A program made the position numbers and the translations under genes. From assembly GCF_044704955.1 (NCBI RefSeq), contig NC_091995.1, positions 37,758,001-37,822,000 on the forward strand: a stretch of DNA of 64,000 bases, written 5' to 3'. How positions within the stretch are numbered: position 1 is the first letter of the stretch; every line of letters starts with the position of its first letter. The DNA is from Pristiophorus japonicus. Lineage: Eukaryota. Below, piece after piece: positions 10,901-64,000 of the stretch. The notes under the pieces are model-generated. The model was given only the letters and a program-made list of their open reading frames with translations, had not been told where the DNA came from and searched no databases.

Positions 10901-11966
10901 TGATGATTGAGACCTGGACAGTGGGTCCTTCTGATAATCCAGACTCATAAAATTGATTGTTCTGACATATCAGACACAGAACGATTGGCTTTCTGATCAT
11001 CAGGCCCAGACAGTAGTTGTTTATTATCATTCAGACGCAGATAGTGGCTCATTCTGATCATTGACACCCAGGAAATTGAATGTTCTTAAAATCCAGGCAG
11101 ATAATGTGATACTTCTCATAAATCAGACCCAGACATTAGGTCATTCTGATAATTCTGACCCAACTAATAGGTCATCATCTTACTTCAGCAGCAGACAATG
11201 GGATTTCTGGTCGTTCAGATCCAGGCAGTGGGTGTTTCTGTTAATTCATACCCATACACAGTGCATATCTTGAAATTTCTGTAGACAGTGAGTATTTATG
11301 ACATTTCTGAACCAGCAATCAAACATTTCTGATAACTCACATGCAAACAGTGAATCTTTACGACAATTGTGACCCAGACAGTGCATGGTTTGATAATTCA
11401 GACCCAGACAGTGGGTCCTTCCAATAATGCAGACTCGGAAAATTGATCATTGTGACAAGTCAGACCAAGGCAGAGTGGCTTTCTGATGACTCAGACCAAG
11501 ATAGTTGGTGTTTCTTATAATTCAGACTCAGACATGATGTGCTGATGATACTTCAGATGCAGGCAATGTCTTTTCTGATAATTCTTATTTAGACAGTGTG
11601 GCCATCTGATAATTCATACCGAGACTTGTTGCTTTTCTGATAATTGAATTCAGACAATATGTACCACTGATAATTCAGGTCCAGATAGTGGGTTTTTATG
11701 ATAATTGAGTTCAGACAGTATGTACTACTGATAATTCATACCCAGACAGTGTTTTTTATGATAATTGAATTCAGACAGTATGTACTACTGATAATTCATA
11801 CCCAGACAGTGGGTTTTTATGATAATTGAATTCAGACAGTATGTACTACTGATAATTCATACCCAGACAGTGTGTTTTTATGATAACTGAATTCAGACAG
11901 TATGTACTGCTGATAATTCAGGTCCAGACAGTGGGGTTTTATGATAATTGAATTCAGACAATATGT

Positions 11967-12883
11967 GGCAGTGTGAGCTGCGAGGAGGATGCTGTGAGGC
12001 TGCAGAGCGACTTGGATAGGTTAGGTGAGTGGGCAAATGCATGGCAGATGAAGTATAATGTGGATAAATGTGAGGTTATCCACTTTGGTGGTAAAAACAG
12101 AGAGACAGACTATTATCTTCATGGTGACAGATTAGGAAAAGGGGAGGTGCAAAGAGACCTGGGTGTCATGGTACATCAGTCATTGAAGGTTGGCATGCAG
12201 GTGCAGCAGGCGGTTAAGAAAGCAAATGGCATGTTGGCCTTCATAGCAAGGGGATTTGAGTACAGGGGCAGGGAGGTGTTGCTACAGTTGTACAGGGCAT
12301 TGGTGAGGCCACACCTGGAGTATTGTGTACAGTTTTGGTCTCCTAACCTGAGGAAGGACATTCTTGCGATTGAGGGAGTGCAGCGAAGGTTCACCAGACT
12401 GATTCCCGGGATGGCGGGACTGACCTATCAAGAAAGACTGGATCAACTGGGCTTGTATTCACTGGAGTTCAGAAGAATGAGAGGGGACCTCATAGAAACA
12501 TATAAAATTCTGACGGGGTTAGACAGGTTAGATGCAGTAAGAATGTTCCCAATGTTGGGGAAGTCCAGAACCAGGGGTCACAGTCTAAGGATAAGGGGTA
12601 AGCCATTTAGGACCGAGATGCGGAGGAACTTATTCACCCAGAGAGTGGTGAACCTGTGGAATTCTCTACCACAGAAAGTTGTTGAGGCCAATTCACTAAA
12701 TATATTCAAAAAGGAGTTAGATGAGGTCCTTACTGCTAGGGGGATCAAGGGGTATGGCGAGAAAGCAGGAATGGGGTACTGAAGTTGAATGTTCAGCCAT
12801 GAACTCATTGAATGGCGGTGCAGGCTAGAAGGGCCGAATGGCCTACTCCTGCACCTATTTTCTATGTTTCTATGTTTCTATGT
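11967..12883 (+). mobile_element. Young 5'-truncated CR1 LINE (open ORF2 C-terminus plus 3' UTR)
   Basis: Uninterrupted 269-aa ORF 11973-12782 (LQSDLDRLGEWANAWQMKYNVDKC...RPHLEYCVQFWSP...FTQRVVNLWNSLP) and a (ttctatgt)n tail. Confidence 0.95.
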
Positions 12884-25700: not shown

Positions 25701-28700
25701 GAGCAGCTGCGGAACCTGGAGGAAGTATTTAGTCAGCTTAACCATGAGGGGCTCAGGCTAAAATGCTCGAAGTGCTTTTTCCTGGTGCCTGAAGTGGAGT
25801 TCCTCTGGCGAAGAATCATGGCGGATGGCATCAGGCCCACCGATTCAAAGACGCAGGCAATCAAAAACGCACCAAGACCACAGAACGTGACGGAGCTGCG
25901 GTAATTTTGAGGACTGCTGAATTATTTTGGTAACTTCTTACCGGATCTTAGCACATTGTTAGAAACCCTGCACTCTTTACTGCATAAAGGACATGAATGG
26001 GTATGGGGTAAAAGCCAAGAAAATGCCTTTGAGAAAGCTAGGAAATTTTTAGATTCAAATAAATTGCTTGTGTTGTGCGATCCATGTGAACGTTTGATAC
26101 TAGCATTTAATGCATCGTCTTACAGCGTTGGGTTTGTAATTGCCACAAGCTAATGAATTTGGGAAAATGCCAATTGCCAATTGCCAGTTGCTTATGCATC
26201 CAGCAGTCTGTCTAAGGCCGCAAGGGCCTGCAGTGTGATTGAAAAATAATGATTAGCGTGTGTTTACGGGGTAAAGAAAATGCATCAATATCTGTTCGGG
26301 CTCAAATTTGAATTGGAAACTGACCATAAGCCGCTTGTATCCATCTTTTCTGAAAAATATGGGTATCAATACGAATGCATCGGCCCGCATCCAGAGATGG
26401 GCGCTCACGTTGTATGCATACAACTATTTCATGCGCCATGGGCCAGGCACAGAAAACTGTGCCGATGCTCTCATAGGCTACCATTTACAACCACAGGGTT
26501 GGAGGATGGCACAGCCTGCAGAGTTAGTTATGGTAATGGAAGCATTCAAGATTGAGCAATGACTTATTATCGCCCGACAAATTAGAAGATGGATGAGTCA
26601 GGAGCCCTTACTGTCCTTCGTAAAGAACTGTGTGCTCCATAGGAGTTGGTCTCGTGTCCCATTAGAGATGCAGGAAGAAATAAAGCCGTACCAGTGGCGC
26701 AATGATGAAATGTCTTTACAGGCAGACTGCCTCCTATGGGGTAATCGGCTAGTTGTGCCAAAAATGTTGTGCAGGGATACTTTCATTACTGATCGACACA
26801 GTACCCACCCAGGCATTGTAATGATGAAAGCGATAGCCCGGTCCCATATGCGGTGGCCCGATATCGATGCAGAATTAGATTCCGGTGTGCACAAATGTAA
26901 TACATGTTTACAGTTAAGTAATGCACCCAGAGAAGCACCACTAAGTTTGTGGTCTTGGCCCTCCAAACCGTTGCCTAGCGTTCATGTCAACCATGCAGGC
27001 CCATTCTTGCGAAAAATGTTTTTAGTGGTTGTAGATGCGGACTGCAAGTGGATTGAATGTGCGATAATGGCGGCAAGCACGTACGCTGCCACCAGAGAAA
27101 GCCTACGGACCATGTTTGTCACGCACTGTCTGCCAGAAGTCCTTGTAAGTGACAATGGACCGTGCTTTACCAATGCCGAATTCAAGGAATTCATGACCCG
27201 CAATGGGGTCAAACATTTCACATCTGCCCCGTTTAAGGCAGGATCCAATGGTCAGGCAGAACGAGCAGTTCAAACGATCAAGCAGAGCTTGAAAATGGTA
27301 ACTGAAGGTTCACTGCACACTCGCTTATCACAAGTACTGCTTAGTTACCACACAAGACCCCATTGGCTCACTGGGGTCCTTCCCACTAAATTGCTCAAGA
27401 AAAGGGCACTTAAGACAAGCATCTCATTAGTCCACCCTGATCTACACGAACAGGTGGAATGCAGGCAGCTTCAATAAAATACATATTATTATCGCGCAAA
27501 TATGTCACACAAAATTGAAGTAAATGATCCTGTAGTTGGGTTGAAATATGGACAAGGTCCCAAATGGATTCCTGGCACTGTTTTGACCAAAGAGGATGTT
27601 TGTGGTGAAACTCGCAAATGGACTCACCTGCAGCAAACACTTGGACCAAACCAAACTCAGATTTACTGACTTTCCAGAATAACCCACCATAGACTCTAAC
27701 TTTTTCAACTCTCCAACACACACACAAGTGGCAACCGACCCAGCGGTTGACCAAGAAGCAGAACCCTCCACCCGCAACAGCCCAGCAAGACTCACAACCC
27801 CCAGCAGTCCAGCAAGGCCAGCTGCGAACCAGCCCAGCGAAGGCCCAACAAAAGATTCACCAAAACCAGCATTTGCACCGAGATGATCAACCAGGGAAAT
27901 GAAGGCCCCAGATCTACTCACATTGTAAATAGTTACACGATTGACTTTGGAGTGGAGTGCTGTTCTGTATGTAAATCTGTAATTACCATGTCTCACCATC
28001 AGAGGGCTTATCCACTGGAGTCCCTAGGGATCCCATAATGCCTTGGGTGCGTCTATTTATAAGGAGGCTTCACAGGTTGGAGAGGCACTCTGAGGTCTAT
28101 AATAAAAGACTACGGTCACACTTATTTGAGCATGCAGTACCTAGTCTGACTCCTTATCCAAGACATAACAATGGCTTCATGGTGGCTCTGCTGCACAAGA
28201 GGGCAGGAAAAAGAGCGGGAGAGCTATATTGGTCGGGGATTTGATCGTAAGTGGAATAGATAGGCATTTCTGCGGCCGCAGAAGTCCAGGATGGTATGTT
28301 GCCTCCCTGGTGCAAGAATCAAGGATGTCTCGGAGTGGCTGCAGGGCATTCTGGAGGGGGAGGGTAATCAGCCCGTTGTCATCGTACCAACGATATAGGT
28401 AAAAAAACGGGATGAGTTCCTACAAGCTGAATTTAAGGAGCTAGAAATTAAATCAAAAAGTATGACCTCAATGGCAGTAATCTCAGGATTACTAACAATG
28501 CCATGTGCTAAATAGAGTAGATGTAGCAGGATAGTTAAGAGGAATACGTGGCTTGAGCAATGGCGCAAGAGGGAGGGAATTAAATTCCTGGGACATTCAA
28601 ACCGGTTCAGCGTAGGTTGGACCAGTACAAAAAGGACGTTGTGCACCTGGGCAGGACCGGAACTGATGTCCGAGTGGGAATGTTTGCTAGTGCTGTTGGG

Positions 28701-32566: not shown

Positions 32567-35500
32567 GATTGTGTTCCTTACACAGATGAGACTGCACACA
32601 GGGAGGTTAAAGTAACAGTGATCTCACTCTTTATTAAGACACTCCAGAGTGAGGAACAGGCCTTCGGAGCCGGCTTATATACATTGCTCCCAAGGGTTGC
32701 TGGGATCCCTTGGGACTTCAGCGGATGTGCCTCCTGGTGGCAGAATATGTGAGTGCATGCTTTACAGATACACAACATCACTCCTCCCCCAAAATCAAAA
32801 TGAAAACTATTTACAATGCGAGGCACTCGGGAGCTTTTCTTTCCCTCGTGGACTTCCTCGGTACAAATGTCTGTTCTGGTGTGTTGGCTGTGCCCTCGCT
32901 GGGCTGGCTGGTTGTTGGCCCTGCAGGGCTGCTGAGTGACCCTGTCCTTGCTTGTCTATTGGGCGTGATGGATTCAATGTCCTGCTCTGGAGTTGTGTCG
33001 TTGATCCTTTAGGTGTGTGTTGTGGGATCGAAAAAGGTGGTGACTGCTGTGGGTTGTTCAGGGCAGTCTGTAAACTGCAGCCACGTTTTGTCCAGGCGCT
33101 TTCTGCAAATTTGTCCATTGTTCAGTTTGACTACAAACAACCTACTCCCTTCTTTAGCTATCACCGTGCCCACGATCCACTTTGGACCATGTCAATAGTT
33201 GAGCACATACACAGGGACTTTCAGGTCAATTTCCCATGACACAGTGGCGCGAACATCATTTACATTTTGTTACTGCCGCCTGCTCTTTACCTGCTCATGC
33301 AGGTTGGGGTGGACCAGCGAGAGTCTGGTTTTAAGTGTACTTTTCATGAGTAGCTCATCCGGGGGCACCCCTGTGAGCGAGTGGGGTCTCGTGCGGTAGC
33401 TGAGCAGTAGTCGGGACAGGCAGGTTTGGAGTGAGCCTTCTGTGACTCGTTTAAGGCTCTGTTTGATTGTTCTACTGCCCGCTCTGCCTGCCCATTGGAG
33501 GCTGGTTTAAACGGGGCGGAGGTGACAAGTTTGATCCCATTGCGGGTCATGAATTCTTTAAATTCGGCACTGCTGAAACATGGCACGTTGTCACTGACCA
33601 GTATGTCAGGCAGGCCGTGGGTGGCAAACATGGTCTTCAGACTTTCAATGGTGGCGGTGGCGGTGCTTAACGACATTATTTCACTTTCAATCCATTTTGA
33701 AAAAGCATCCATCACCACCAGGAATATTTTCCCGAGAAATTGAATAGTCGACATGTATCCTCGACCATGGTCTGGAGGGACAGGACCCCAAATTAGTGGT
33801 GCGTCTCTGGTTGCATTGATCAGCTGAGTACATGCGGCATTGCCGTACACAGGACTCTAAGTCAGAGTCGATACCGCGCCACCACACGTGGGATCTGGCT
33901 ATCGCTTTCATCATTACTATACACAGGTGTGTGCTGTGGAGATCCGAGATGAACGTCTCCCTGCCATTTTTGGGTAGCACTACACGGTTACCTCACAACA
34001 GGCAGTCTGCCTGAATGGACAGCTTGTCCTTTCGCCACTGGAAAGGCTTAATTAGCTCTTGCATTTCAACGGGGATGCTGGCCCAGTTCCCATGCAGTAC
34101 ACCGTTTGTTTACTAGGGACAACAGAGGATCTTGGCTGGTCCAAGTCCTAATCTGGCGGGCCGTGACAGGTGATTTATCTTTTTCAAATGCTTCCATGAC
34201 CATCAACAAGTCTGCGGGCTGTGCCACCATCAACAAGTTTGCAGGCTGCGCCATTTCCACCCCCGTGGTGGGCAATGGTAGCCGACTGAGGGCATCCGCA
34301 CAGTTCTTGGTGCCTGGCCTGTGGTGGATGGTGTAGTTATATGCTGATAGCGCGAGTGCCCACCTTTGTATGCGGGCTGAGGCATTCGTATTTAACACTT
34401 GTTTTCAGCGAACAGGAATATGAGGGGCTAGCGATCAGTTTCCAGTTCAAATTTGAGGCCAAACAGGTACTGATGCATTTTCTTTCCCCCGAACACATAC
34501 GCTAATGCCTCTTTCTCAATCATGCTGTAGGCCCTCTCTGACCTAGACAAGCTCCTGGAGGCATAGGCGACAGGTTGCAATTTCCCTGCAGCGTGAGCTT
34601 GTTGTAATACATAGTCTCTGTACGACGAAGCATCACATGCTAACACAAGTCTTTTACATGGGTTATACAATACAAGCAGCTTGTTGCAGCATATAATGTT
34701 TCTGGCTTTCTCAAAAGCAATTTTTTTTTTTTTTCCCGATACCCAGTTCTCACCTTTATGCAATAGCACATGTAGGAGCTCGGAGATGATGCTTAACCCT
34801 GGGAGAAAGTTACCAAATTATTTGAGGAGTCCTCGGAATGACCGCAGCTCTTTGACGTTCTGTGGCCTGGGCGCGGTCCTGATAGCCTCTGTCTTGGAGT
34901 CTGTGGGCCGAATGCCATCCGCCGCAATCTTTCTCCCCAAAAACTCCACTCCACGCATTTCGATCTCTTCAGACACAGCCCTACGCGATCCAGTCGCTGG
35001 AGGACCTCGTCCAGGTTTTGTAGTTGATGGACGGTGTCCCGACTCGTGACCAACATATCGTCCTAATAAACTACCATGCGTGGTACCAACTTGAGTAGGC
35101 TTTCCATGTATCTCTGGAAGATCGCTGCAGCTGACCGAATTCCAAACGGGCATCTGTTGTAGATGAGCAATTCCATGTGCGTGCTGATGCAGGTGAGGCC
35201 CTTTGAAGAATCCTCCAGCTCCTGCGTCATGTAGGCCGAAGTCAGGTCGAGCTTGGTGAATGTCTTGCCTCCTGCCAGCATCGCAAATAGGTCGTCTGCC
35301 TTAGGTAATGGGTATTGGTCCTGTAGCGAGAAACGATTAATAGTTACTTTATAATCGCCGCAAATTCAGACAGTGCCATCACTTTTGAGTACTGGAACAA
35401 TCGGGCTGGCCCACTCGCTGAATTCCACTGGGGAGATAATGCCCTCGCGTTGCAGCCTGTCCAGCTCGATTTCCACTCTCTCCCTCATCATGTGATGTAC

Positions 35501-37132
35501 CGCTCACGCCTTGTAGTGAATGGGACGTGCCTCTGGGAACAAGTGGATCCGCACCTTCGCCCTGCAAAGGTTTCCAATGCCTGGCTCAAAAAGGGAAGGA
35601 AATTTGAATTTGTTAAGAACCTGGGTACATGAGGACTCATTGAAATGTGATAGCGCTCGGATGTCATCCCAGTTCCAGCAGATTTTGCCCAGCCAGCTCC
35701 TTCCAAGCAAAGTGGGGCATCACCCGGGACAATCCAGAGTGGCAGTTCATGCACCGTGCCCTCGTAGGTGACTTTGGCCATGGCCCTGCCCAGGACAGTG
35801 TTGAGCTCTTTGGTGCACATTCTAAGTTTCATGTGGATGGTGCTCAGGGCTGGTCTGAGTGCCTTGTTGCACCACAGTGTATCAAACATCTTTTTACTCA
35901 TGATGGATTGGCTAGCGCCAGTTTCCAGTTCCATGGCTACGGGTAAGCCATTCAATTTTACATTTAGCATTATAGGTGGACATTTTGTCGAAAATGTGTG
36001 CACCCCGTGTACTTCAGCGTCTGCTTTTTCTCTCTGAGACTCAAAACTGTTTTGATCCACCATGAACCGATCTTCCTCTGCCAAGTTGTGGTTAGCAGGT
36101 TTTACACAGCTTGAAGCTCGTCTGCAAGCTCGTTGGACATGCCCCAATGTTCCACAGATCTTGCAATCATACCCTTTGAAGTGGCATGAATCAACTGAAT
36201 GGAAGCCTCCACATCGCCAACAAGGTGTGAATTGCCTTGCATTCATCCTTTGTTGCAGACTCTGAGACATCTGGGTCACTTGAGGCCTGCTGGCAGTTGC
36301 ATACTCGTGTTTTCTGCCATGTACATTTCTGCTCGCAAACACAGTTCCAATTATTTTATGAACATTGCTCGCACTTGTGTGCTGAAAGAATTGTTTGGTG
36401 TCATCACTGGTGGACACAAACGCTTGTGCTCTCGCAATGGCCTTACTGAGGATTGATGTCTCGACAGTCAAAAGTTTTTGTAGGATGGTCTTGTGGCCAA
36501 TGCCCAGTACAAAAAAGTCTCTGAGCATCTGCTCCACGTAGCCATCAAACTCACATTGCCCTGCAAGTCGCCTTAGCTCGGCGACGTAGCTCGCCATTTC
36601 CTGACCTTCAGGTCGCTGGCACGTGTAGAACCGATACCTCGCCATCTGCACACTCTCCCTCAGGTTAAGTTGCTCCCGAACCTGTGTACACAGCTCCTCA
36701 TATGACTTATCTGTGGCTTTCACCAGAGCCAGAAGATTCTTCATGAGGCTGTAGGCAGACCGTGAGGAGGACCGTTCTCCTTTTTGCAGTGCTTCTTTCT
36801 CTGTCCAGCTCGTTGGCTACAAAGTACTGGTCTAGCCATTCAACACAGGCTTCCCCATCTTCACCCTCCGGCAACTTCTCCAGGATTGCCACAGTTTGCT
36901 GCATCTTTGTATTGGATTCGTATACTCGTCGCCAGTTATTGTGTTCCTAACACAGATGAGACTGCACACAGGGAAGTTAAAGTATCAATGACCTCAATCT
37001 TCAGTGAGGAACAGGCCTTAGGGGCCAGCTTATATACAGTGCTCCCAAGGGAGGCTGGGATCCCTTGGGACTTCAGGGGATGCGCTCCCTGCTGGTGGAG
37101 TATGGGAGTGCATGCTTTGTAGATACACAACA
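32567..37132 (-). mobile_element. Gypsy/Ty3 LTR retrotransposon, full length, decayed, related to 23636-28170
   Basis: LTRs 32567-32777 and 36937-37132; 5-bp TSD gaaac; PBS actggcgacgag; PPT gggggaggag; 418-aa gag-protease ORF with two CCHC knuckles; RT, RNase H and integrase fragments. Confidence 0.95.
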
Positions 37133-50969: not shown

Positions 50970-53900
50970 CCATTAGTAAAGGCAAAAAAGGTCCCGGACC
51001 TGATGGCCTGCATCCTAGGTTCATATCATTGCGAAAATGCTGGAATCCATTATTAAGCAAGTAGTGGCATGACATTTAGGAACACTTAATTCAATCAATA
51101 AGAGTCAGCATGCATTTTTTGAAAGGGAAATCATGTTTGACACATTTTCTGGAGTTCGGTGACAATGTAACAAGAAGGGTGGATAAAGGGGATCCAGTAG
51201 ATATAAGAACATAAGAATTAGGAACAGGAGTAGGCCATATAGCCCTTCGAGCCTGCTCCACCATTCAATAAGATCATGGCTGATCTGGTCGTGGACTCAG
51301 CTCCACTTACCCGCCCTCTCCCCATAACCCTTAATTCCCTTATTGCTTAAAAATCTATCTATCTGTGACTTGAATACATTCAATGAGCTAGCCTCAACTG
51401 CTTCCTTGGGCAGAGAATTCCACAGATTCACAACCCTCTGGGAGAAGAAATTCTTTCTCAACTCGGTTTTAAATTGGCTCCTCCGTATTTTGAGGCTGTG
51501 CCCCCTAGTTCTAGTCTCCCCCACCAATGGAAACAACCTCTCTGCCTCTATCTTGTCTATCCCTTTCATGATTTTAAATGTTTCTATAAGATCACCCCTC
51601 ATCCTTCTGAACTCCAAGGAGTAAAGACCCAGTCTACTCAATCTATCATCATAAGGTAACCCCCTCATTTCTCGAATCAGCCTAGTGAATTGTCTCTGTA
51701 CCCCTTCCAAAGCTAGTATATCCTTCCTTAAGTAAGGTGACCAAAACTGCACGCAGTATTCCAGGTGCGGCCTTACCAATACCTTATACAGTTGCAGCAA
51801 CACCTCCCTGCTTTTGTACTCCATCCCTTTCGCAATGAAGGCCAACATTCCATTTGCCTTCCTCATTACATGCTGCATCTGCAAACTAACCTTTTGGGAT
51901 TCATGCACAAGGACCCCCAGGTCCCTCTGCACCACAGCATGTTGTAATTTCTCCCCATTCAAATAATATTCTCTTTTACTGTTTTTTTTCCCCAAGGTGG
52001 ATGACCTCACACTTTCCGACATTGTATTCCATCTGCCAAACCTTAGCCCATTCGCTTAACCTATCCAAATCTTCTTGCAGCCTCTCTGAGTCCTCTACAC
52101 AACCCGCTTTCCCACTAATCTTAGTGTCATCTGCAAATTTTGTTGCACTACACTCTGTCCCCTCTTCTAGGTCATCTATGTATATTGTAAACAGTTGTGG
52201 TCCCAGTACTGATCCCTGTGGCACACCACTAACCACTGATTTCCAACCGGAAAAGGACCCATTTATCCCGACTCTCTGCTTTCTGTTCGCCAGCCAATTC
52301 TCTATCCATGCTAATACATTTCCTCTGACTCCGTGTACCTTTATCGACTGCAGTAACCTTTTGTGTGGCACCTTATCGAATGCCTTTTGGAAATCTAAAT
52401 ACACCACACCTATCGGTACACCTCTATCCACCATGCTCGTTATATCCTCAAAGAATTCCAGTAAGTTAGTTGAACATGATTTCCCTTTCATGAATCCATG
52501 CTGCGTCTGCTTGATTGTACTATTCCGATCCAGATGTCCCGCTACTTCTTCCTTAATGATAGTTTCAAGCATTTTCCCCACTACAGATGTTAAACTAACC
52601 GGCCTATAGTTACCTGCCTTTTGTCTGCCCCCTTTTTTAAACAGAGGCATTACACTAGCTGCTCTCCAATCCGCTGGTACCTCCCCAGAGTCCAGAGAAT
52701 TTTGGTAGATTATAACAAATGCATCTGCTATAACTTCCACCATCTCTTTTAATACCCTGGGATGCATTTCATCAGGACCAGGGGACTTGTCTACCTTCAG
52801 TCCCATTAGTCTGTCCAGCACTACATCCCTAGTGATAGTGATCATCTCAAGGTCCTCCCTTCCCACATTCCTATGACCAGCCATTATTGGCATGGTTTTT
52901 GTGTCTTCCACTGTGAAGACGGAAGCAAAAAAAATTTTTAAGGTCGCAGCCATTTCCACATTTCCATTATTAAATCCCCCTTTTCATCTTCTAAGGGACC
53001 AACATTTACTTTAGTCACTCTTTTCCGTTTTATATATCTGTAAAAGCTTTTACGATCTGTTTTTATGTTTTGCACAAGTTTACCTTCGTAATCTATCTTC
53101 CCTTTCTTTATTGCTTTTTTAGACATTCTTTGCTGTTGCTTAAAATTTTCCCAATCCTCTAGTTTTCCACTAACCTTGGCCACCTTATACGCATTGGTCT
53201 ATGATTTGATACTTTCCTTTATTTCCTTGGTTATCCACGGCTGGTTATCTCTTCTCTTGCCGCCCTTCTTTTTCACTGGAATATATTTTTGTTGCGCATT
53301 ATGAAAGAGCTCCTTAAAAGTCCTCCACTGTTCCTCAATTGTGCCACCATTTAGTCCTTGTTTGCAGTCTACTTTAGCCAACTCTGCCCTCATCCCACTG
53401 TAGTCCCCTTTGTTTAAGCATAGTACGCTCGTTTCTGATACAACTTCCTCATCCTCAATCTGTATTACAAATTCAACCATATTGTGATCACTCATTCCGA
53501 AAGGATCTTTTACGAGGAGAACGTTTATTTTTCCTGTCTCGTTACACAGGACCAGATCCAAAATGGCTTGCTCCCTTGTCGGCTCTGTTACATACTGTTC
53601 TAAGAAACAATCCCTTATGGATTCGATGAATTCCTCCTCCAGGCAACCCCCTACGATTTGATTTGACCAATCGATATGTAGGTTAAAATCCCCCATAACT
53701 ACTGCCGTTCATTTTTCACATGCCTCCATTATTGCCTTGATTATTGCCCGCCCCACTATGAAGTTATTATTTGGGGGCCTATAAACTACACCGACTATCT
53801 CTAATCCCCACCCACAATGATTCAACATTTTGTTCATTGAAGCCAAAATCATCCCTCACAACTGCCCTGATATCATCCTTTATTAACAGAGCTACCCCAC

Positions 53901-56780: not shown

Positions 56781-57196
56781 CTGTGGAGGCTGTGTTATTG
56801 AAAATATTTAAGGTGACGGTAGATAGATTTTGAATGCTAAAGGAGTCAAAGCTTATGGGGAGCATGCGGGGAGGTGGATTTGAGGCCAGGATTGGTTCAG
56901 TCATTAACGTATTGAATGGCAGAGCAAGCTCGAGGAAACAAATGGTCTATTCCTGCTGCCTATTTCTCATGTTCTTACACCATTCTATCTTTCGCACTGC
57001 TGGCATCTTTTCCCAATATACATCCTGATGTCCACCTTAAAATACAAGCCTCCCACTAATAGTGGTTCTCCAGGGCCTGACTGTCGGGTTTCTCAGCTCA
57101 CCAACCTGATCCACAAGGAATCACATAAACACCAACCAATGTATTGGGTCTAATTGGATAGCTCTCTGGCAGAGCCGGCACAGGCACGATGGACCA

Positions 57197-57394
57197 TGTT
57201 ATGTATGTAAATATCACCAATGTGTAAGACTTGCAAGGAGTGGGCGCACCTGTGGGTTGCACACCCTGGGCAAGCCGATATAAAAGGCAGTCGACCATGC
57301 TGTTCCTTCACTCTGGAGTTACATTAAAGAGACCAAGTTCACAACAGTTTGAGCTTACAATATACAGACTTGTGGTGTTACTCTGAACATAACA
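57197..57394 (+). mobile_element. Solo LTR (Gypsy-type)
   Basis: Perfect 7-bp terminal inverted repeat tgttatg...cataaca, internal tataaaa and attaaa; same termini as the 23636 LTR. TSD not evident. Confidence 0.7.
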
Positions 57395-57565
57395 ATCTGA
57401 ATGTCCTCTTTCTGTGCTGTAAGATTCAATGATGGATATAAATAGGCAAAAAGGAGGCCTGCAACTGCAGATGGGATCCTCCTGCAAAATGCATTAGTAA
57501 CTATTTTAAGCATGAACAGTGTGAATCCGACTACTTTCTCCAGAGCTGCAGCAGGTCGATGATGG

Positions 57566-58190
57566 TGTTAGCGTAAGTGTTTTATCAGAAGAATCACTCA
57601 ACACTCAGAGTCAGTTCCAACGCCAATGCAGCCTTTATTAACGCCAGCGGGGGGAGGAAGCCTCAGGACTGGATCCAGGCACTTCACTCCGCAGAACTAA
57701 GGGTTTCATGGATCTTTATATGTTTTACAACAGTTTACTACAGTTACATACAACAGTTTACTACAGTTATATTAGACCAATAGATAGAGTTAGTCTCTAA
57801 ACGTAAAGTGGCTCATGTGTTGCCAAGAGATGTGTTGCTAAGAGATGTGTTGCGAGGAACGACTCATGTTCCAGGCCCCCCTTTATCTTACTGTCCTTGG
57901 GTGCTGTCTTTGGTAGCCTCCTTATCTTAATCCTGTTACAGAGTCGTATTGTCCTTACTTCCACCAGAACATTTAGTCCTGAGGCCTGGCTGATTAAAGA
58001 CACCTGCAGAATTTGCTTGTTATTCCTGTGTATGGGAAACAATAATTATCAGTTTCCAGGAATGCGATCTAATTCAGCTAACAGAAATCTGTTGAGGCTT
58101 CACTGGTAGCCATTTTATGATTCAAGTTACATATAGTTCTAACCTTATACTACAGGTGCCATTGCCCGAGGGTACCTAATGCCTGCAACA
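57566..58190 (-). repeat. 3' LTR
   Basis: Direct repeat of 63142-63782; minus-strand TATA-like catataaa (~57715-57722) and AATAAA (~57634-57639). Confidence 0.95.
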
Positions 58191-58203
58191 ATTCCCTCCT
58201 TTC
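58191..58203 (-). promoter_or_regulatory. Polypurine tract
   Basis: Minus strand gaaaggagggaat abutting the TG of the 3' LTR. Confidence 0.85.
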
Positions 58204-58327
58204 GGTAAGGGGACTAGTACTAATCCCCTTTAACCGACCGCCCTACACTTGTTAGTTTTTGTGCACGGCCCGGTACTCCCTGCCTCAACGTGCTGGCCAG
58301 TCACGCTGTTTCAGGAGTCCCGGTTGC

Positions 58328-60450
58328 TTAGATCAAATTGAAAAAGGTCAAATCCTCCTTCCCCTTTATTAGATAGGCTTGTTTAGTATTTGAGGACCGG
58401 TCATGGGTCCCTCTTCATAGTGCATGGTGCCTGCATGCCTGGCAGGCCATTATGCCCCATGTTATTGTATCCCGACCAGTATGTGTGAAATTATTTGAAT
58501 CCAAGAATGGATGTTCACATTTATTCCCCAGTCCCAGACCTTTCTCCACCAACTCTGACTTTGTAAGTCTATATCGATATCTTCTCCCAGTACTTTGATT
58601 TTAGTTTGCAGTTGGTGGTAGAGCTTTACGGATTGACCCACCCTGAGCCTCAATTCTCGTAATACTTCGGTTAGATGTGGGATAGGGACCTGATCTGGCT
58701 CGTCATAATCCTGCAAATGATCATGTAGCTGATGGGTTACCTCAATAACTTCGGGCTTCCGGCGCCTAACCTGGGTGATATGTGCTTGCCCGATCGTGAC
58801 AGGTCATAGTGGCGTAAAGCAAAAGTTCGGCTGTGGTATTGGGCACTGCAGGTCATTATACTGGTATGAACGCTCTGTGGCAGAGATGCAGTATCTTCCC
58901 TTCCCTCCATAGACTGCTCTCGCGAAGTGCCTGTGTGCGGGCACTATTTATAGTACACACCCATCGGTTTGATTTAAACCGCACTCGTCTAGCTCACCTT
59001 GGCCTACCGGGTGAGGGTATACTGTGATCTCCCCCCTTTGCTTGCAATCTGTTAGGGAAATCCCGGTAATATGTTGTTTCGACGAACGGCGGAGGTGGTG
59101 GTCAGATAAAACTCCATAGTTCATGTGATTTTCCCGTATTACTCCGATATTCTCTAGTTGGTACAGGGGGAATGGTCCTGAGTCTGGCGTGGTTATAGGG
59201 ATCATCAGGACTATCCCTATCCCAGTATTTCTTCTATCTGGCAGTCTGGAATTGCTGGGTGTACTCGGGTCAGTCCCTTCAGAGTACAGTTATCCAGAGT
59301 CCCCCTCTGGTTTGCCAACTGAGCCAAATGTGAACGGTCTATCCAATCGGGCACTTCCCCACGTTGGATCTGGTCGAGATTGTGGCGGATCTGTCCCACC
59401 ATCCACAGACCATAAGCGTGACAGAGTTGCCCCTGTCTTTGCTTTCCTGTATCTTCTTTTTCTCTATCAATGAGGTGATTAATGGTATTGACGTGAGCTT
59501 CCAGGACTGAGATGCCATCCAACTGGATTTCCGCACCCTCCTTTCTTAGGTTGGCTTGGTCTTCCTGGTTTTGCTCCACCCTCTCTAATAACCCCTTTAT
59601 CACTCCTCTAAGCTGTTCCACCCTCTCATTTAACACTTGTATATCTGTCGAGTTTACTACGGAATCCCTGTATTGAAAAGGGTAGCAATATCATTAACTA
59701 TTACCCTCTCTATCCTGGGGGCTGACCCCTGTCCTCGGAATCTACTGGCACCCATTGCATCGGCAACCTGCTGCATTACAACTTTACTTAATACATCGTA
59801 CATTTTCCTTGACTGTTCTGTACAGTATTCCGGCATCTGAATGCCTGAAATATTGATCAGGACAGGCACAATTTCATGTTTTACATTATCATATAATAAT
59901 TCCCCTTCGTTGTACATTACAATTCCATGTTCTGGTCCCTCAGTAGTTATGGGACAAGGCAGTTCCTCGGGCAATGTAGTGGTACTTATGGGGCGCGGTA
60001 TCGGAGGGGGTGGAAGTATACATACAATGATATTGCAGCCGCCCCCACCTCCTCGTAGTACCCACACAGCCCCACACCCTTTTTGCGGATGGCTGATTGC
60101 TGGGATTGTCCCGGAGGTGCGCAAATTATGCCGAAAGTACATTCATCGGGCCCTTTGACATCCCTCCGTTTAATGCAGCTGCTCCTTATACCCGTGGAGC
60201 ACTGTACACATACCCGGTTCTTATTAGGATTTACTTGTAACCATGCATTAAAATAATTCCTGTCCTTGCTCCAATCCTTGGCTGCTGGCATGCACATTCC
60301 ATCCGTTAAATTAAACAAGACTCCATAGTTCATGTAGTGGTTTATTTCCTGAGTGCGCTGCAATCCGTTGGTATCGTCCAGTATTTGCGTGGGTCTTGAG
60401 GTTCCCAGTATCATGAGTCCCCAGAGTCGGAGTCACCACTGCGGTCCCAT
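58328..60450 (-). pseudogene. env: Envelope glycoprotein (class I fusogen, F-protein-like), about 8 disablements
   Basis: Reassembled: signal-like LRLWGLMILG; Cys-rich N domain; Pro-rich hinge; degenerate cleavage site RIER; fusion peptide/HR1 VIVNDIATLFNTGI(S)VVNSTDIQVLNERVEQLRGVIKGLL; Cys-rich core; HR2 LYHQLQTKIKVLGEDIDIDL; WWRKVWDWG; TM IQIISHILVGIQ[fs]ITWGIMAC. Confidence 0.85.
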
Positions 60451-60577
60451 CTTGGTGAGTGTTTTATCTGAAAATTTTAAACAGATAGCCTGGTCGTCAC
60501 CAGGTGTTAGGTTCTGGTCTACTTGTGTCGTTGTCACTCTGTAGAATCGGAGGTAAGGATTAGGTTAACCATATTCT

Positions 60578-60730
60578 TTATAGTCGTACCATCTCTATCA
60601 CTTCATGTCCCTGTCTGGACTGCCGTCGGTTTTGCGTTTGGGCCTGCTGTGCTCGAGTCTGCACGATGACCCATCTAAGTATTATCCAAACTCCAATCAA
60701 CACCAATGCCACCATTATTCCTCCAAACAT
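60578..60730 (-). CDS. Putative 50-aa single-pass membrane accessory protein
   Basis: Manually translated open frame MFGGIMVALVLIGVWIILRWVIVQTRAQQAQTQNRRQSRQGHEVIEMVRL*, below the ORF-track cutoff. Confidence 0.45.
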   Translation of the reverse strand: MFGGIMVALVLIGVWIILRWVIVQTRAQQAQTQNRRQSRQGHEVIEMVRL

Positions 60731-63080
60731 CGTTGTCTGCTTTACCGTTAGGTTGGGTTTGTGGACTACACCTACCCATCGTGGAGTATATTGGCTCTAT
60801 TGCCATAAGTGATAGTGCTATGGCTGCGCACTGCACTATCCGTCAAGTCCCGTTTTTTTTAAACATCTCTTCCAGCCTTTTTATCTTAGCTTTTAACTCT
60901 TCAATTTGTTTTGTTTGAGTATCTATTTCTTTATTGTATCAGGCAAGTTTTATTACATAAGCTAGTTCTGTTTTTATTTTTGTTTCCTCTGTTAGGTGAG
61001 TCTATTTTTCTATTAAGAAATCCAAATTAATAATGTTCAGTATAAATAGCTGTCAATGGAAAGGGTTACTCCTTTCCAGGTTTGTAAGAAGACCTGATGT
61101 CATTACGTGACTTCACGTAATCATCTGAAAAAAAAGTCTTTGTGCCTTCAAAACTTGCTTTGAAATTAGGAATCCGTTAAACAGCATAAATCATTAGAGT
61201 AAACTCCAATGTTTTCTTAACTTCTAATTCAAGTACTTGCCAATTAATTTTTTTTTTAAATTGATTTAAAACGAGACCACACATACAATAGCAATTTTGT
61301 TTACTGAAATTCAATTATTTTTTTTTTTTATTTCTCTCTCAGCACAAAATCTAAACATCCTGCCAGTTCCATTTCCTATAAGAATTTAAAAATTCTCTAA
61401 TTCCCAGTTTTTTTTTCTTTCTGTGCTGAGCTCGCATAGCTTAGATTTTCTCCTCGTTATCTTCAAAATCCTCCTGCTTGTTTCGACTGTTCGGGACTTT
61501 TCTTGAAAAACACTGTCCATTTTGGAAATCTTTTCAAACTGCATTGAAACTTTCTCATAATTTAAAATCATTCGTTTACTTTCAAAGTGGCGTCTTTATC
61601 TTTTTCTTTTCTCCATAACTGGAATGGAGTCTAGCTTTGAGGGTTTGAGGGCTGCTTTTCGTTATCTCAAAATGCTCCAGTTTCAAAGTCGTTACTAAAG
61701 CTTGCTGTTTTTAACATTTTTCAAAAGTCCCTTTACACCTTCGCAGATAGCTCGCCACTCGCCCAGGAGTTTGACCTGATCAGATTTAATTTAATAATAA
61801 TTTTTTTTTAATCCACCTCAGTATTTTCTGTGCCTTCTCTGAATATCTCAAAATCCCAATTCAAACTTTGTAATTTCAATCTTTATTTAAAACCTTTTTT
61901 TTTTGTTTTGAGCTAGAAGCTTTCTTAAAAGGCATTCTTTATCTCATTCCGAGACTAAATTTATGTCTTTCCATCCAATGTAATCAATCATTGCATGTTT
62001 TCTTTCGACAAGTAAATTATTTTTTTTTAACCACCGGGACCATGTATTTTTTATCTTTTGCTCAACAAACCTATCCTTTGTATATTTCCTAGCTCCGTAA
62101 CTTATCATCCGAATAAATCCACACCTGTGTTTCTAACTTAAAATGTCTTAAAACTTCCCACATACAGGACAACACTACAAAGGGTTAGCTAAAATAAACA
62201 GACACTTGCATCCCTCTTCCAACCAGGCTTTCAGAAACATGACAACATAAAAATTCATTCCACAGTCACAAAGTCACACAGGGACTCTCACTCAACGACC
62301 AGACATTTACAAAAGTCTCTCTTCTTTCCTATTAATTGTTTTGGCCGGCTCTATTTTTGGATTCACGACCTTTCAGGGAATTCGTAGTTTTATCTAAATA
62401 ATTCCTCACATAACTTTTGTAGTGGACTACCGATATTGGTTTTTCCAGTCCTTCACCCACCATTCCCGTTGGGCTGCTGGCAGGTCCCACCCTGCTCTAA
62501 TCATTTTCTCAATTAGTTTATTTTGCTTTTCCGCCAGATGGCGGGTAAGGGACCCTTCTGATCCCCACTCGAGTTTACTACTTTATTGGCCATTTCTGGG
62601 TAGGACTAGAACCATTTCGAATCTACTCTCAGAGGTTTGCCTTTTACCTCGCACAACTTGTAGTAGACCGTCTCTGGGCTGCTGTCAGGTCACAAGTCTG
62701 CTGTTACACAAACTTATACAATTCTTAAAATGTGTTTTAGCAATTCCCGCAGTGCTCTACATATCCTTAACGGCTACCTACCACCGCTTTGTCTGTTGGT
62801 CCGACCCTGTTCATAGGTTTAGATTCCGCTGGTTGCTGTGCACTGCCTTGTCTCTGGGGTATTTCAAATCACACTACTGGGTCCAGAAGATGTCACTTGG
62901 TATCACAATCCCACGGTCTAAGTGTGTTCCCTACGCCTACTTGGTTCCTGGCCATCACGTGGGACAAAAGTCCTCTTAATTCAGGCTCAGGCTAGACGTT
63001 TGAGATATTAGACCGCCTCCTCATGTCGATCAACCGACTTCCACCTTCCGCACCCTTTATAATTAAAAATCGTTTTTTAT

Positions 63081-63088
63081 ACTCACCC
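63081..63088 (-). promoter_or_regulatory. Putative major splice donor of the LTR element
   Basis: Minus strand gg|gtgagt about 35 nt downstream of the PBS. Confidence 0.6.
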
Positions 63089-63121
63089 GTGTTTTTCCAA
63101 GGGCGTCCAGCGACTCCGGGA

Positions 63122-63140
63122 AATCCTGCCGACTACGCCA
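63122..63140 (-). promoter_or_regulatory. Primer-binding site, tRNA-Ser
   Basis: Minus strand TGGCGTAGTCGGCAGGATT, 1 nt after the LTR; complementary to the vertebrate tRNA-Ser 3' end (...AATCCTGCCGACTACG-CCA). Confidence 0.93.
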
Positions 63141-63141
63141 C

Positions 63142-63782
63142 TGTTAGTGTTCGTGTTTTATCAGAAGAATCACTCAACACTCAGAGTCGGTTCCAATGCC
63201 AATGCGGCCTTTATTAACGCCAGCGGGGGGGAGGAAGCCTCAGGACTGGATCCAGGCACTTCACTCCACAGAACAAAGGGTTTCATGGATCTTTATATGT
63301 TTTACAACAGTTTACTACAGTTACATACAACAGTTTACTACAGTTACATTAGACCAATAGATAGAGTTAGTCTCTAAACGTAAAGTGGCTCTTGTGTTGC
63401 CAAGAGATGTGTTGCTAAGAGATGTGTTGCTAAGAGGTGTGTTGCTAGGAACGACTCATATTCCAGGCCGTCCTTTATCTTACTGTCCTTGGGTGCTGTC
63501 TTTGGTAGCCTCCTTATCTTGATCCTGTTACAGAGTCGTATTGTCCTTACTTCCACCAGAACATTTAGTCCTGAGGCCTGGCTGATTAAAGACACCTGCA
63601 GAATTTGCTTGTTATTCCTGTGTGTGGGAAACACCAATTATTAGTTTCCAGGAATGTGGTCTAATTCAGCTAACAGAAATCCCTTAAGGCTTCACTGGTA
63701 GCCATTTTATGATTCAAGTTACATATAGTTCTAACCTTATACAAAAGGTGCCGTTGCCCTCGGGTGCCTATTGCCTACAACA
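63142..63782 (-). repeat. 5' LTR
   Basis: Direct repeat of 57566-58190 with one extra 15-bp unit; flanked by TSD atgg at 63783-63786. Confidence 0.95.
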
Positions 63783-64000
63783 ATGGGATCCTGCAGGTCA
63801 CTGATGAAGCGATAGCAGAAGTGCAGATCTCCAGGTTGCGCAGAACCACTGCCCCTGCAGTTTCCTCTGCCCACTGCCCAGGACTTCCCAGCAATGCGGC
63901 AGGACTGTAGCAGATCTGCAGCATTAGCTGACTACAGATAACAGTGGTTCGCCTCTATTTATAAACATCAGGAGTGAATTGTTCACTTTTACCCGCTGTG

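Follow-up and report, generated by a model that had tools for sequence, protein, structure and literature searches.

Organization of the pol-less element

The window, that is, the whole 64,000-nucleotide stretch of Pristiophorus japonicus contig NC_091995.1 analysed here, contains a 6.2-kb LTR element without pol, which lies, with all its parts, on the minus strand. Its 5′ LTR (TG...CA; 63142..63782) and 3′ LTR (57566..58190) differ by a K2P distance of 0.051 over 627 aligned sites, in line with the divergence of about 5% noted in the initial annotation. The element is bounded by a 4-bp target-site duplication (63783..63786 on the upstream side, partner at 57562-57565). Four checked paralogues on the same contig have flanks identical to those of the window copy, pointing to segmental duplication. 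The LTR divergence is a poor clock here, being about double the sub-lineage median (0.023) in a copy that resides in a segmental-duplication array.

The 5′ LTR is followed by a primer-binding site (PBS) for tRNA-Ser(AGA) (63123..63140), identical to that in part of the complete, helper family described below; at both loci checked, the complement of the PBS lies inside genes called tRNA-Ser(aga) by ARAGORN. The adjoining leader (62594..63122) is helper-derived (80-87% identity to helper copies in the first ~700 nt of the interior) and likely serves as the packaging region. It includes the major splice donor (63081..63088), inherited from the helper, in which the same motif is present in all seven copies printed. 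A broken gag 5′ end of about 50 codons (62436..62593) was detected by tblastn (75% identity, E-value = 3e−17 for 62582-62436). It is followed by an AT-rich core (60850..62435) without detectable homology to helper gag-pol, in which a 12-bp hairpin is predicted (61096..61125; z −3.6 in one of 18 windows) and kept in most copies. The part from 60850 to 62200 had been described as AT-rich and holding only broken coiled-coil-like peptides; the AT-rich middle stands (GC 0.32 in 61001-62000). The persisting gag codons have to be added to that description of the interior. Downstream of the core, a single-transmembrane ORF of 50 codons (60578..60730), with its start codon at the core/helper junction, corresponds to the C-terminal part of a 66-codon small ORF of the helper; in pol-less copies it shows no sign of selection (nine nonsynonymous to one synonymous shared variants). 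The env splice acceptor (60539..60546) and a second candidate (60468-60474) precede a broken env (58328..60450) for a putative foamy/F-like class I fusion protein, and a polypurine tract (PPT; 58191..58203) adjoins the 3′ LTR. The donor at 63086 and the acceptors ending at 60539 and 60468 are present as annotated, as is the gap of about 2.7 kb between PBS and env (2.69 kb to the ATG at 60450). In the complete parent, the donor and the first acceptor are conserved, as is the AG of the second acceptor. Thus, LTRs, PBS and PPT are intact in the absence of gag-pol, as in non-autonomous endogenous retroviruses (ERVs).

The reported lack of pol in the interior was confirmed by tblastn with the Pol of the complete parent and by Pfam searches. 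The former, run on 71 pol-less interiors over their initial 2800 nt, produced no sense-strand match at E ≤ 1, and the latter nothing significant for seven window peptides, two of them interior. Divergent pol, named beforehand as the finding that would speak against a pol-less architecture, is thereby absent from the interior by both sequence and profile searches. By eye, the coiled-coil peptide in this region suggested an integrase C-terminal relic, a reading supported by neither tblastn nor tblastx. A weak match to the Gag N-terminus (E-value = 7e−5) is found in some sister copies just upstream of this peptide, near the 3′ end of the core. When the longest natural ORF across the peptide was used as a protein query, none of 28 candidates matched, a result of little weight.

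The pol-less family and its complete relative

The same pol-less interior recurs at other sites with differing target duplications, as the initial annotation anticipated. Among loci sampled by the pattern of LTR end plus PBS, 37 of 40 are pol-less, one is complete and two are recombinant, and many independent insertions are indicated by the 37 of 44 scored copies that are flanked by exact 4-5-bp target duplications. Exact genome matches number 301 and 1118 for the markers of the window's sub-lineage and a larger one, respectively, against 116 for the pol-bearing junction. These observations support a family that spread in its pol-less form.

The anticipated gag-pol family with matching LTR ends and PBS was also found. 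The same genome harbors a complete gag-pro-pol-env parent that shares LTR ends, tRNA-Ser primer site and splice sites with the pol-less family. Its env is covered by at least 90% in 13 of 20 copies, partially in four and not at all in three; no env deletion is common to the helper copies among the 20, and its env is free of the lesions common to the pol-less sub-lineages. At two loci with identical LTRs, the core is joined to helper pol in mid-protease, so that recombinants between pol-less elements and the parent do exist. Dependence of the pol-less family on this helper is well supported.

Among solved structures, those of MLV/XMRV are the best matches for both the RT (403 bits versus 199 for foamy virus) and the RNase H of the helper. 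An MLV-like Pol combined with an in-frame TGA that separates gag from pol is as in class I (gamma/epsilon-like) ERVs; the match to MLVIN_C (E-value = 2.5e−4) falls below the curated cut-off. The helper Env has a signal peptide, an RxKR site, a fusion peptide, a coiled coil and a transmembrane segment. It matched no Pfam family and lacks the gamma-type signature (TLV_coat, ISD, CX6CC). In language-model features it lies near F-type clusters of the Atlas (0.91-0.92, with a low recognition score), and it weakly matches the foamy TM profile (E-value = 0.0035). No smc gene was seen in the helper.

Env lesions across the family

The window env carries ten lesions instead of the approximately eight originally counted. 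Nor did all of them arise after insertion, as had been deduced from the LTR divergence, because three of the ten are common to copies at other loci and are therefore older than the insertion in the window. The inherited lesions are a stop at codon 6 (60435-60433) and frameshifts near codons 440 and 658, whereas four single-base losses and three stops are not lineage traits. In the window's sub-lineage, the codon-6 stop is present in 99 of the first 100 listed among 301 matches, and a stop at most five codons from the env start was found in 34 of 36 scored loci; the two inherited window frameshifts recur in 11 and five other loci. In the larger, younger sub-lineage, env contains an out-of-frame duplication (881 genome matches; this form in 99 of the first 100 listed), and 24 of 27 sampled copies are out of frame at codon ~75. 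Six of the youngest copies also have a second env stop in common. A putative sub-lineage with an in-frame duplication was rejected, this form (one sampled copy) being 1 of 100 among the matches listed. These lesion counts, as well as the dN/dS values below, exclude 11 loci of tandem or segmental duplicates. Taken together, the near-universal early stop among listed matches, the two inherited frameshifts and the out-of-frame state of the larger sub-lineage speak against the proposal that the element integrated with a working env.

Distribution of the AT-rich core

A core marker has 2923 matches in the genome. A part of the core of about 0.5 kb (~62360-61840) is also present in unrelated ERV families, which account for seven of 16 sampled core loci that could not be matched to the window family. 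In a second family, distinguished by a different LTR, primer and env type (its Env matches TLV_coat at 1e−15), the core replaces gag-pro-RT in 14 of 16 copies, whereas the other two have full-length pol and no core. Counting three further backgrounds, the core occurs in five. No free-standing donor of the core with its own LTRs was found among the 16 unmatched loci sampled out of the 2923 matches.

Origin and spread of the pol-less elements

We consider it likely (probability of about 0.8) that the window element belongs to a non-autonomous ERV family that has an AT-rich non-coding core in place of gag-pol, and that this family spread because the complete gag-pro-pol-env relative packaged and copied it while receiving no working Env in return. 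Since the env breaks are common to hundreds of separate copies, the element is probably a freeloader rather than an env donor. The recombinants suggest that pol-less RNA was packaged into helper particles, where co-packaging and template switching would have refreshed the helper-derived ends (LTR, leader and env). Template switching may also have brought the core into an unrelated family, along with a remnant of the parental gag. Env would then persist as passenger DNA in the stretch from acceptor to PPT, its conserved look being due to repeated replacement by sequence from helper lineages that are under selection. Thus, of the bipartite system originally proposed, the gag-pol helper with matching ends holds, but the env-supplying partner is not supported: env is broken in the master copies, and the helper carries its own.

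A one-off deletion in a complete provirus after insertion has practically no chance of being correct and was rejected, because the identical interior recurs at dozens of fetched loci with differing target duplications and helper gag-pol is not the source of the middle. A more serious alternative is that pol-less copies gave Env to gag-pol helpers for part of the family's history, either because ribosomes read through the early stop or because older lineages had yet to acquire it. Consistent with the expectation of env dN/dS below 1, values on shared variants are low (0.2-0.4 overall): 0.33 and 0.19-0.23, against 0.93-0.95 and 0.66 on singletons, with two older-type copies counted with the younger sub-lineage. 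Shared variants private to the window's sub-lineage have a dN/dS of ~0.4 (24 nonsynonymous to 20 synonymous without CpG sites, p = 0.002 versus neutrality). The splice sites are retained, 22 of the 35 copies scored in the window's sub-lineage do not have the codon-440 frameshift, and the older pol-less copies L115, L125, L126 and L129 lack the codon-6 stop. The codon-6 stop is a UGA with C as the next base, which makes for a leaky context, and in the helper, too, gag and pol are separated by an in-frame TGA. Nevertheless, we regard such donation as improbable, because the helper carries its own env, the frameshifted sub-lineages represent the largest and latest expansions, three older copies share a gap of ~355 nt in env, and the in-frame duplication is too rare to constitute a lineage. 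The low env dN/dS probably stems mostly from recombination with helper env, although this does not explain it fully. In the env tree, complete, pol-less and recombinant copies are intermingled, and for 115 of 160 shared env variants of the younger sub-lineage both alleles also occur in helper copies. In the window's sub-lineage this holds for only 46 of 160 in the sampled helper copies, and we assume that its private shared variants were imported from helper lineages outside the sample. Some mosaics could come from ectopic DNA recombination. Shared lesions combined with helper recombination can mimic a signal of selection, so that lesions should be dated across copies; splice sites and a low env dN/dS are no proof that an ERV produces Env.

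Within the preferred explanation of a helper-dependent family, the role of the core may be viewed in two ways. To us it seems about an even bet that the core is inert filler: a short RNA with the right ends would out-replicate the helper and reach other families through its abundance in shared cells. In keeping with this, the core has no conserved ORF, little predicted structure and many indels among copies, and no Rfam match was obtained in 57000-64000. On the other hand, all five backgrounds retain the ~0.5-kb part, which lies in the place of gag and in sense orientation wherever the ERV context is readable, and core-bearing copies predominate in both families sampled. We also suggest, more tentatively, that the core might be a selfish cis-acting cassette without LTRs or genes, which aids RNA expression, export or packaging, template-switches between unrelated retrovirus families that differ in primer tRNA, LTR and class of env, and there displaces gag-pol and makes satellites that outnumber the helper. 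If so, it would represent a kind of retrovirus parasite for which we found no description in the literature searched. The filler interpretation concerns the role of the core only and is compatible with non-autonomous hitchhiking.

Comparison with known retroelements

Non-coding LTR elements mobilised by helper proteins include ETn/MusD, which the window element resembles in being a non-coding LTR element presumably moved by the proteins of a helper. Mouse VL30, as outlined in PMC4859993, is likewise non-coding, helper-mobilised and devoid of env; in contrast, the window element keeps a full-length dead env and the remnant of a small transmembrane ORF. A close parallel is recKoRV, recombinants of KoRV and PhER that proliferated in the germ line and for which co-packaging was proposed by the authors in the account of these elements (PMC6112702). 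As in recKoRV, a foreign, degraded middle is flanked by a 5′ LTR with gag leader and by env sequence with a 3′ LTR, both from the helper, in an element encoding no intact virus. Unlike recKoRV as described there, the window family keeps the whole env and exceeds a thousand copies. Its arrangement has lasted through several helper waves (env identity to the present helper from 73-76% to ~90%), and several unrelated families contain the same middle, with no PhER-like free donor among the sampled loci. The recKoRV process may be seen here over a long time scale and with several helper families, one non-coding segment staying constant. True env donors are known from the chicken (helper factor and EAV-HP), where a virus in need of env obtains it from an endogenous copy by complementation or recombination (PMC10820513); the recipients there are env-less or gain a new env, whereas here the helper has env and that of the presumed donor's master copies is broken.

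Within the literature covered, to which Repbase and most subscription papers do not belong, we found no description of such a shark element or of an env-supplying pol-less ERV. Parts of the helper Env resemble those reported for Lokiretroviruses and epsilon-like shark ERVs (PMC7947760, PMC4422223). The RNase H of Lokiretroviruses groups with foamy viruses in the analysis given in PMC7947760, whereas both RT and RNase H of the helper are, among solved structures, closest to MLV/XMRV, which, as a comparison of best matches, argues against membership in that group. With its MLV-like Pol, putative foamy/F-like Env and small membrane ORF, the helper is of separate interest.

The pol-less family and its probable helper

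The element is a pol-less LTR provirus on the minus strand of the window, with the 5′ LTR at 63782-63142 and the 3′ LTR at 58190-57566, between which lie a 4.95-kb interior and the PPT; its target duplication is 4 bp and its primer-binding site (PBS) matches tRNA-Ser(AGA). What the initial annotation gave for coordinates, splice motifs, AT content and LTR divergence (5%) was confirmed throughout on the window sequence, as was the absence of pol, none being found even with Pol of the helper (a complete gag-pro-pol-env relative with compatible LTR ends and PBS), the closest possible query. About 50 codons of gag are left. In this 5.9-Gb genome, the window (G000:C19:37758001-37822000) is one unit of a tandem segmental duplication on contig C19 (~37.55-39.30 Mb, period ~240 kb, at least eight units). 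The eight C19 copies of the element, spaced by ~240 kb and with common flanks in the four checked, represent one multiplied insertion and were counted once.

A pattern combining LTR end and PBS has 462 exact matches in the genome. We sampled the first 20 listed loci for each of its two main variants (n = 40), passing over two loci already in the set. The same pol-less interior recurs in 37 of the 40 (three with later insertions), at independent sites with different target duplications, exact 4- or 5-bp duplications surrounding 37 of 44 scored pol-less copies; the other three loci are two recombinants and one complete provirus, the gag-pol relative with the same LTR ends and PBS that had been sought. 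Over all classes, 28 duplications of 5 bp and 16 of 4 bp were seen among 52 scored. The pol-less family (B) has two main sub-lineages: B1, that of the window, has 301 exact marker matches and a median LTR K2P of 0.023, and the younger B2 has 1118 and 0.009; the pol-bearing junction has 116 matches genome-wide, all three counts being lower bounds obtained with patterns of different length. At a yearly 2.2e-10 substitutions per site, the rate assumed for sharks in PMC4422223, the B1 median would correspond to ~50 million years. Certain LTR pairs in B2 are identical, so this sub-lineage was active recently. Locus L007 has, just upstream of the env start, a 37-nt insertion that duplicates the LTR end together with most of the PBS and probably arose by erroneous strand transfer. 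Among L094-L113, L120, L122 and L130-L133, there are two distinct PBSs, each in helper and pol-less copies; the second we take to be, probably, that of another tRNA-Ser.

The helper was studied in L081 and 19 more gag-bearing copies, after exclusion of one further fetched locus, a nested composite. In its ~8.07-kb interior, an in-frame TGA separates Gag, which has two zinc knuckles, from protease, RT, tether, RNase H and integrase; on sequence comparison the helper's Pol is MLV-like. Pol is followed by a transmembrane ORF of 66 codons, its start overlapping the stop of pol, and by env. Of the 20 copies, 13 have at least 90% of env covered, four have part of it and three have none. The donor and acceptor noted initially appear to be the helper's ordinary env splice sites. 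Pfam assigned no family to helper Env; its resemblance to F-type fusion proteins in Atlas, where the recognition score is low, is no more than a lead, and by profile it weakly resembles the foamy virus TM subunit (E = 0.0035). The nearest Env relatives are shark proteins (top identity 92%), with remoter ones in a skate and frogs, which makes a shark host very likely. The small ORF (L081, L097, L110 and other helpers) begins with a short N-terminal part, which leads into a single transmembrane segment followed by basic residues, a layout that we would liken, as layout only, to Vpu or FAST-type small membrane proteins. Most of the helper copies examined have it open from Met, and the window retains a remnant at 60730-60578 (minus strand).

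Decay and probable import of env

The initial annotation regarded the env lesions as post-insertion damage, in about the number expected from the LTR divergence. This is wrong for three of the ten lesions of the window copy, because other B1 loci also have the codon-6 stop and both frameshifts, the one near codon 440 and the one near codon 658. Of 36 scored B1 loci, 34 carry a stop no more than five codons from the env start, and the remaining two have indels in that stretch; among the first 100 matches across the genome, 99 have the stop at codon 6. The frameshift near codon 440 occurs in 12/35 scored B1 loci and 0/11 helper copies, that near codon 658 in 6/27 and 0/13; four single-base losses are private to the window copy. 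B2 recovered a helper-type signal peptide through recombination, but 24 of the 27 copies sampled have lost the env frame near codon 75. The duplication in B2 env has 881 exact matches, out of frame in 99 of the first 100; one sampled pol-less copy has an uninterrupted env frame, through a change found in one of those 100. Env thus seems to have been dead before most copies inserted.

For env variants found in at least three copies, dN/dS is 0.33 in B1, 0.19-0.23 in B2 and 0.17-0.20 in the helper; for singletons it is 0.93-0.95 in B1 and 0.66 in B2. The ratio on shared variants is indeed below 1 (0.19-0.33), but much of this can be read as import from the helper, because helper, pol-less and recombinant copies are intermixed in the env tree and both alleles of 115 of 160 shared B2 variants occur in helper copies. 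In B1 the corresponding figure is only 46 of 160, and variants private to B1 still show dN/dS of ~0.4 (p 0.001-0.002), which counts against env as a mere passenger. They would fit donation of Env by pol-less copies, whether the early stop is read through at a low level (UGA-C being a leaky context) or Env functioned in older lineages, four older copies being without the codon-6 stop. We consider such donation unlikely, however, since the helper mostly retains env itself and pol-less env is broken by lesions common to many loci. Import offers another source of B1 variation: no sampled helper matches B1 in its signal peptide or small-ORF tail, so that a helper lineage outside the sample presumably existed, and four synonymous variants at codons 376-403, split identically among copies, look like one imported tract. 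Because two defining features of the env-donor kind failed, the element does not belong to it, and the proposed env-supplying partner is not supported.

Recombination and the shared core

In L059 and L064, a third, very young class with identical LTRs, a B-type 5′ half is joined to helper pol in mid-protease. These gag-less recombinants have a long open RT-RNase H-integrase frame and a common 148-nt env deletion. Together with the varying extent of helper gag retained at the 5′ junction of B copies and an older B env merely 73-76% identical to that of the present helper, these junctions fit repeated co-packaging and template switching, which would join B copies with helper sequence if packaging occurs as presumed. 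The same process is proposed for recKoRV (PMC6112702).

The place of gag-pol is taken by an AT-rich non-coding core. Interior positions ~706-2400 gave no match to helper gag-pol except a weak second relic of the Gag N-terminus (E = 7e-5). Searches of the core yielded neither a conserved ORF nor an Rfam match, and little structure is predicted apart from one hairpin outside the shared part. A core 22-mer has 2923 exact matches in the genome; the first 16 on contig C1 absent from both sub-lineage lists comprise four B1/B2 copies, five older B, four of a second ERV family and three other backgrounds. The second family differs in LTR and PBS, its Pol is 31-39% identical to that of the helper, and those copies that have env encode a gamma-type Env. 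In 16 further copies of this family, chosen as best matches to a core-bearing copy and so biased towards the core, the core replaces gag-pro-RT in 14, and the other two lack it and have full-length pol. In this family the core is preceded by a remnant of gag from the first helper, suggesting that the core came from a B-type element. L121 and L124 represent further core-bearing ERV families; compared with the helper, Pol is 43-72% and the F-like Env 27-37% identical.

The shark element resembles VL30/ETn in its non-autonomous mode of working and recKoRV in its build. Two things are new with respect to known systems: the arrangement persisted through helper waves, and several unrelated families contain one and the same core; a literature search, with most subscription papers and Repbase outside its coverage, found no description of such an element.

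By eye, long frames in the window at 35491-36816 (minus), 26562-27474 (plus), 51300-52983 (minus) and 11951-12779 (plus) resemble fragments of gypsy-type gag and integrase and of LINE reverse transcriptase. Contig C23 carries at ~15-21 Mb a big tandem array of tRNA-Ser-like units with a period of ~1.95 kb (1022 matches genome-wide).
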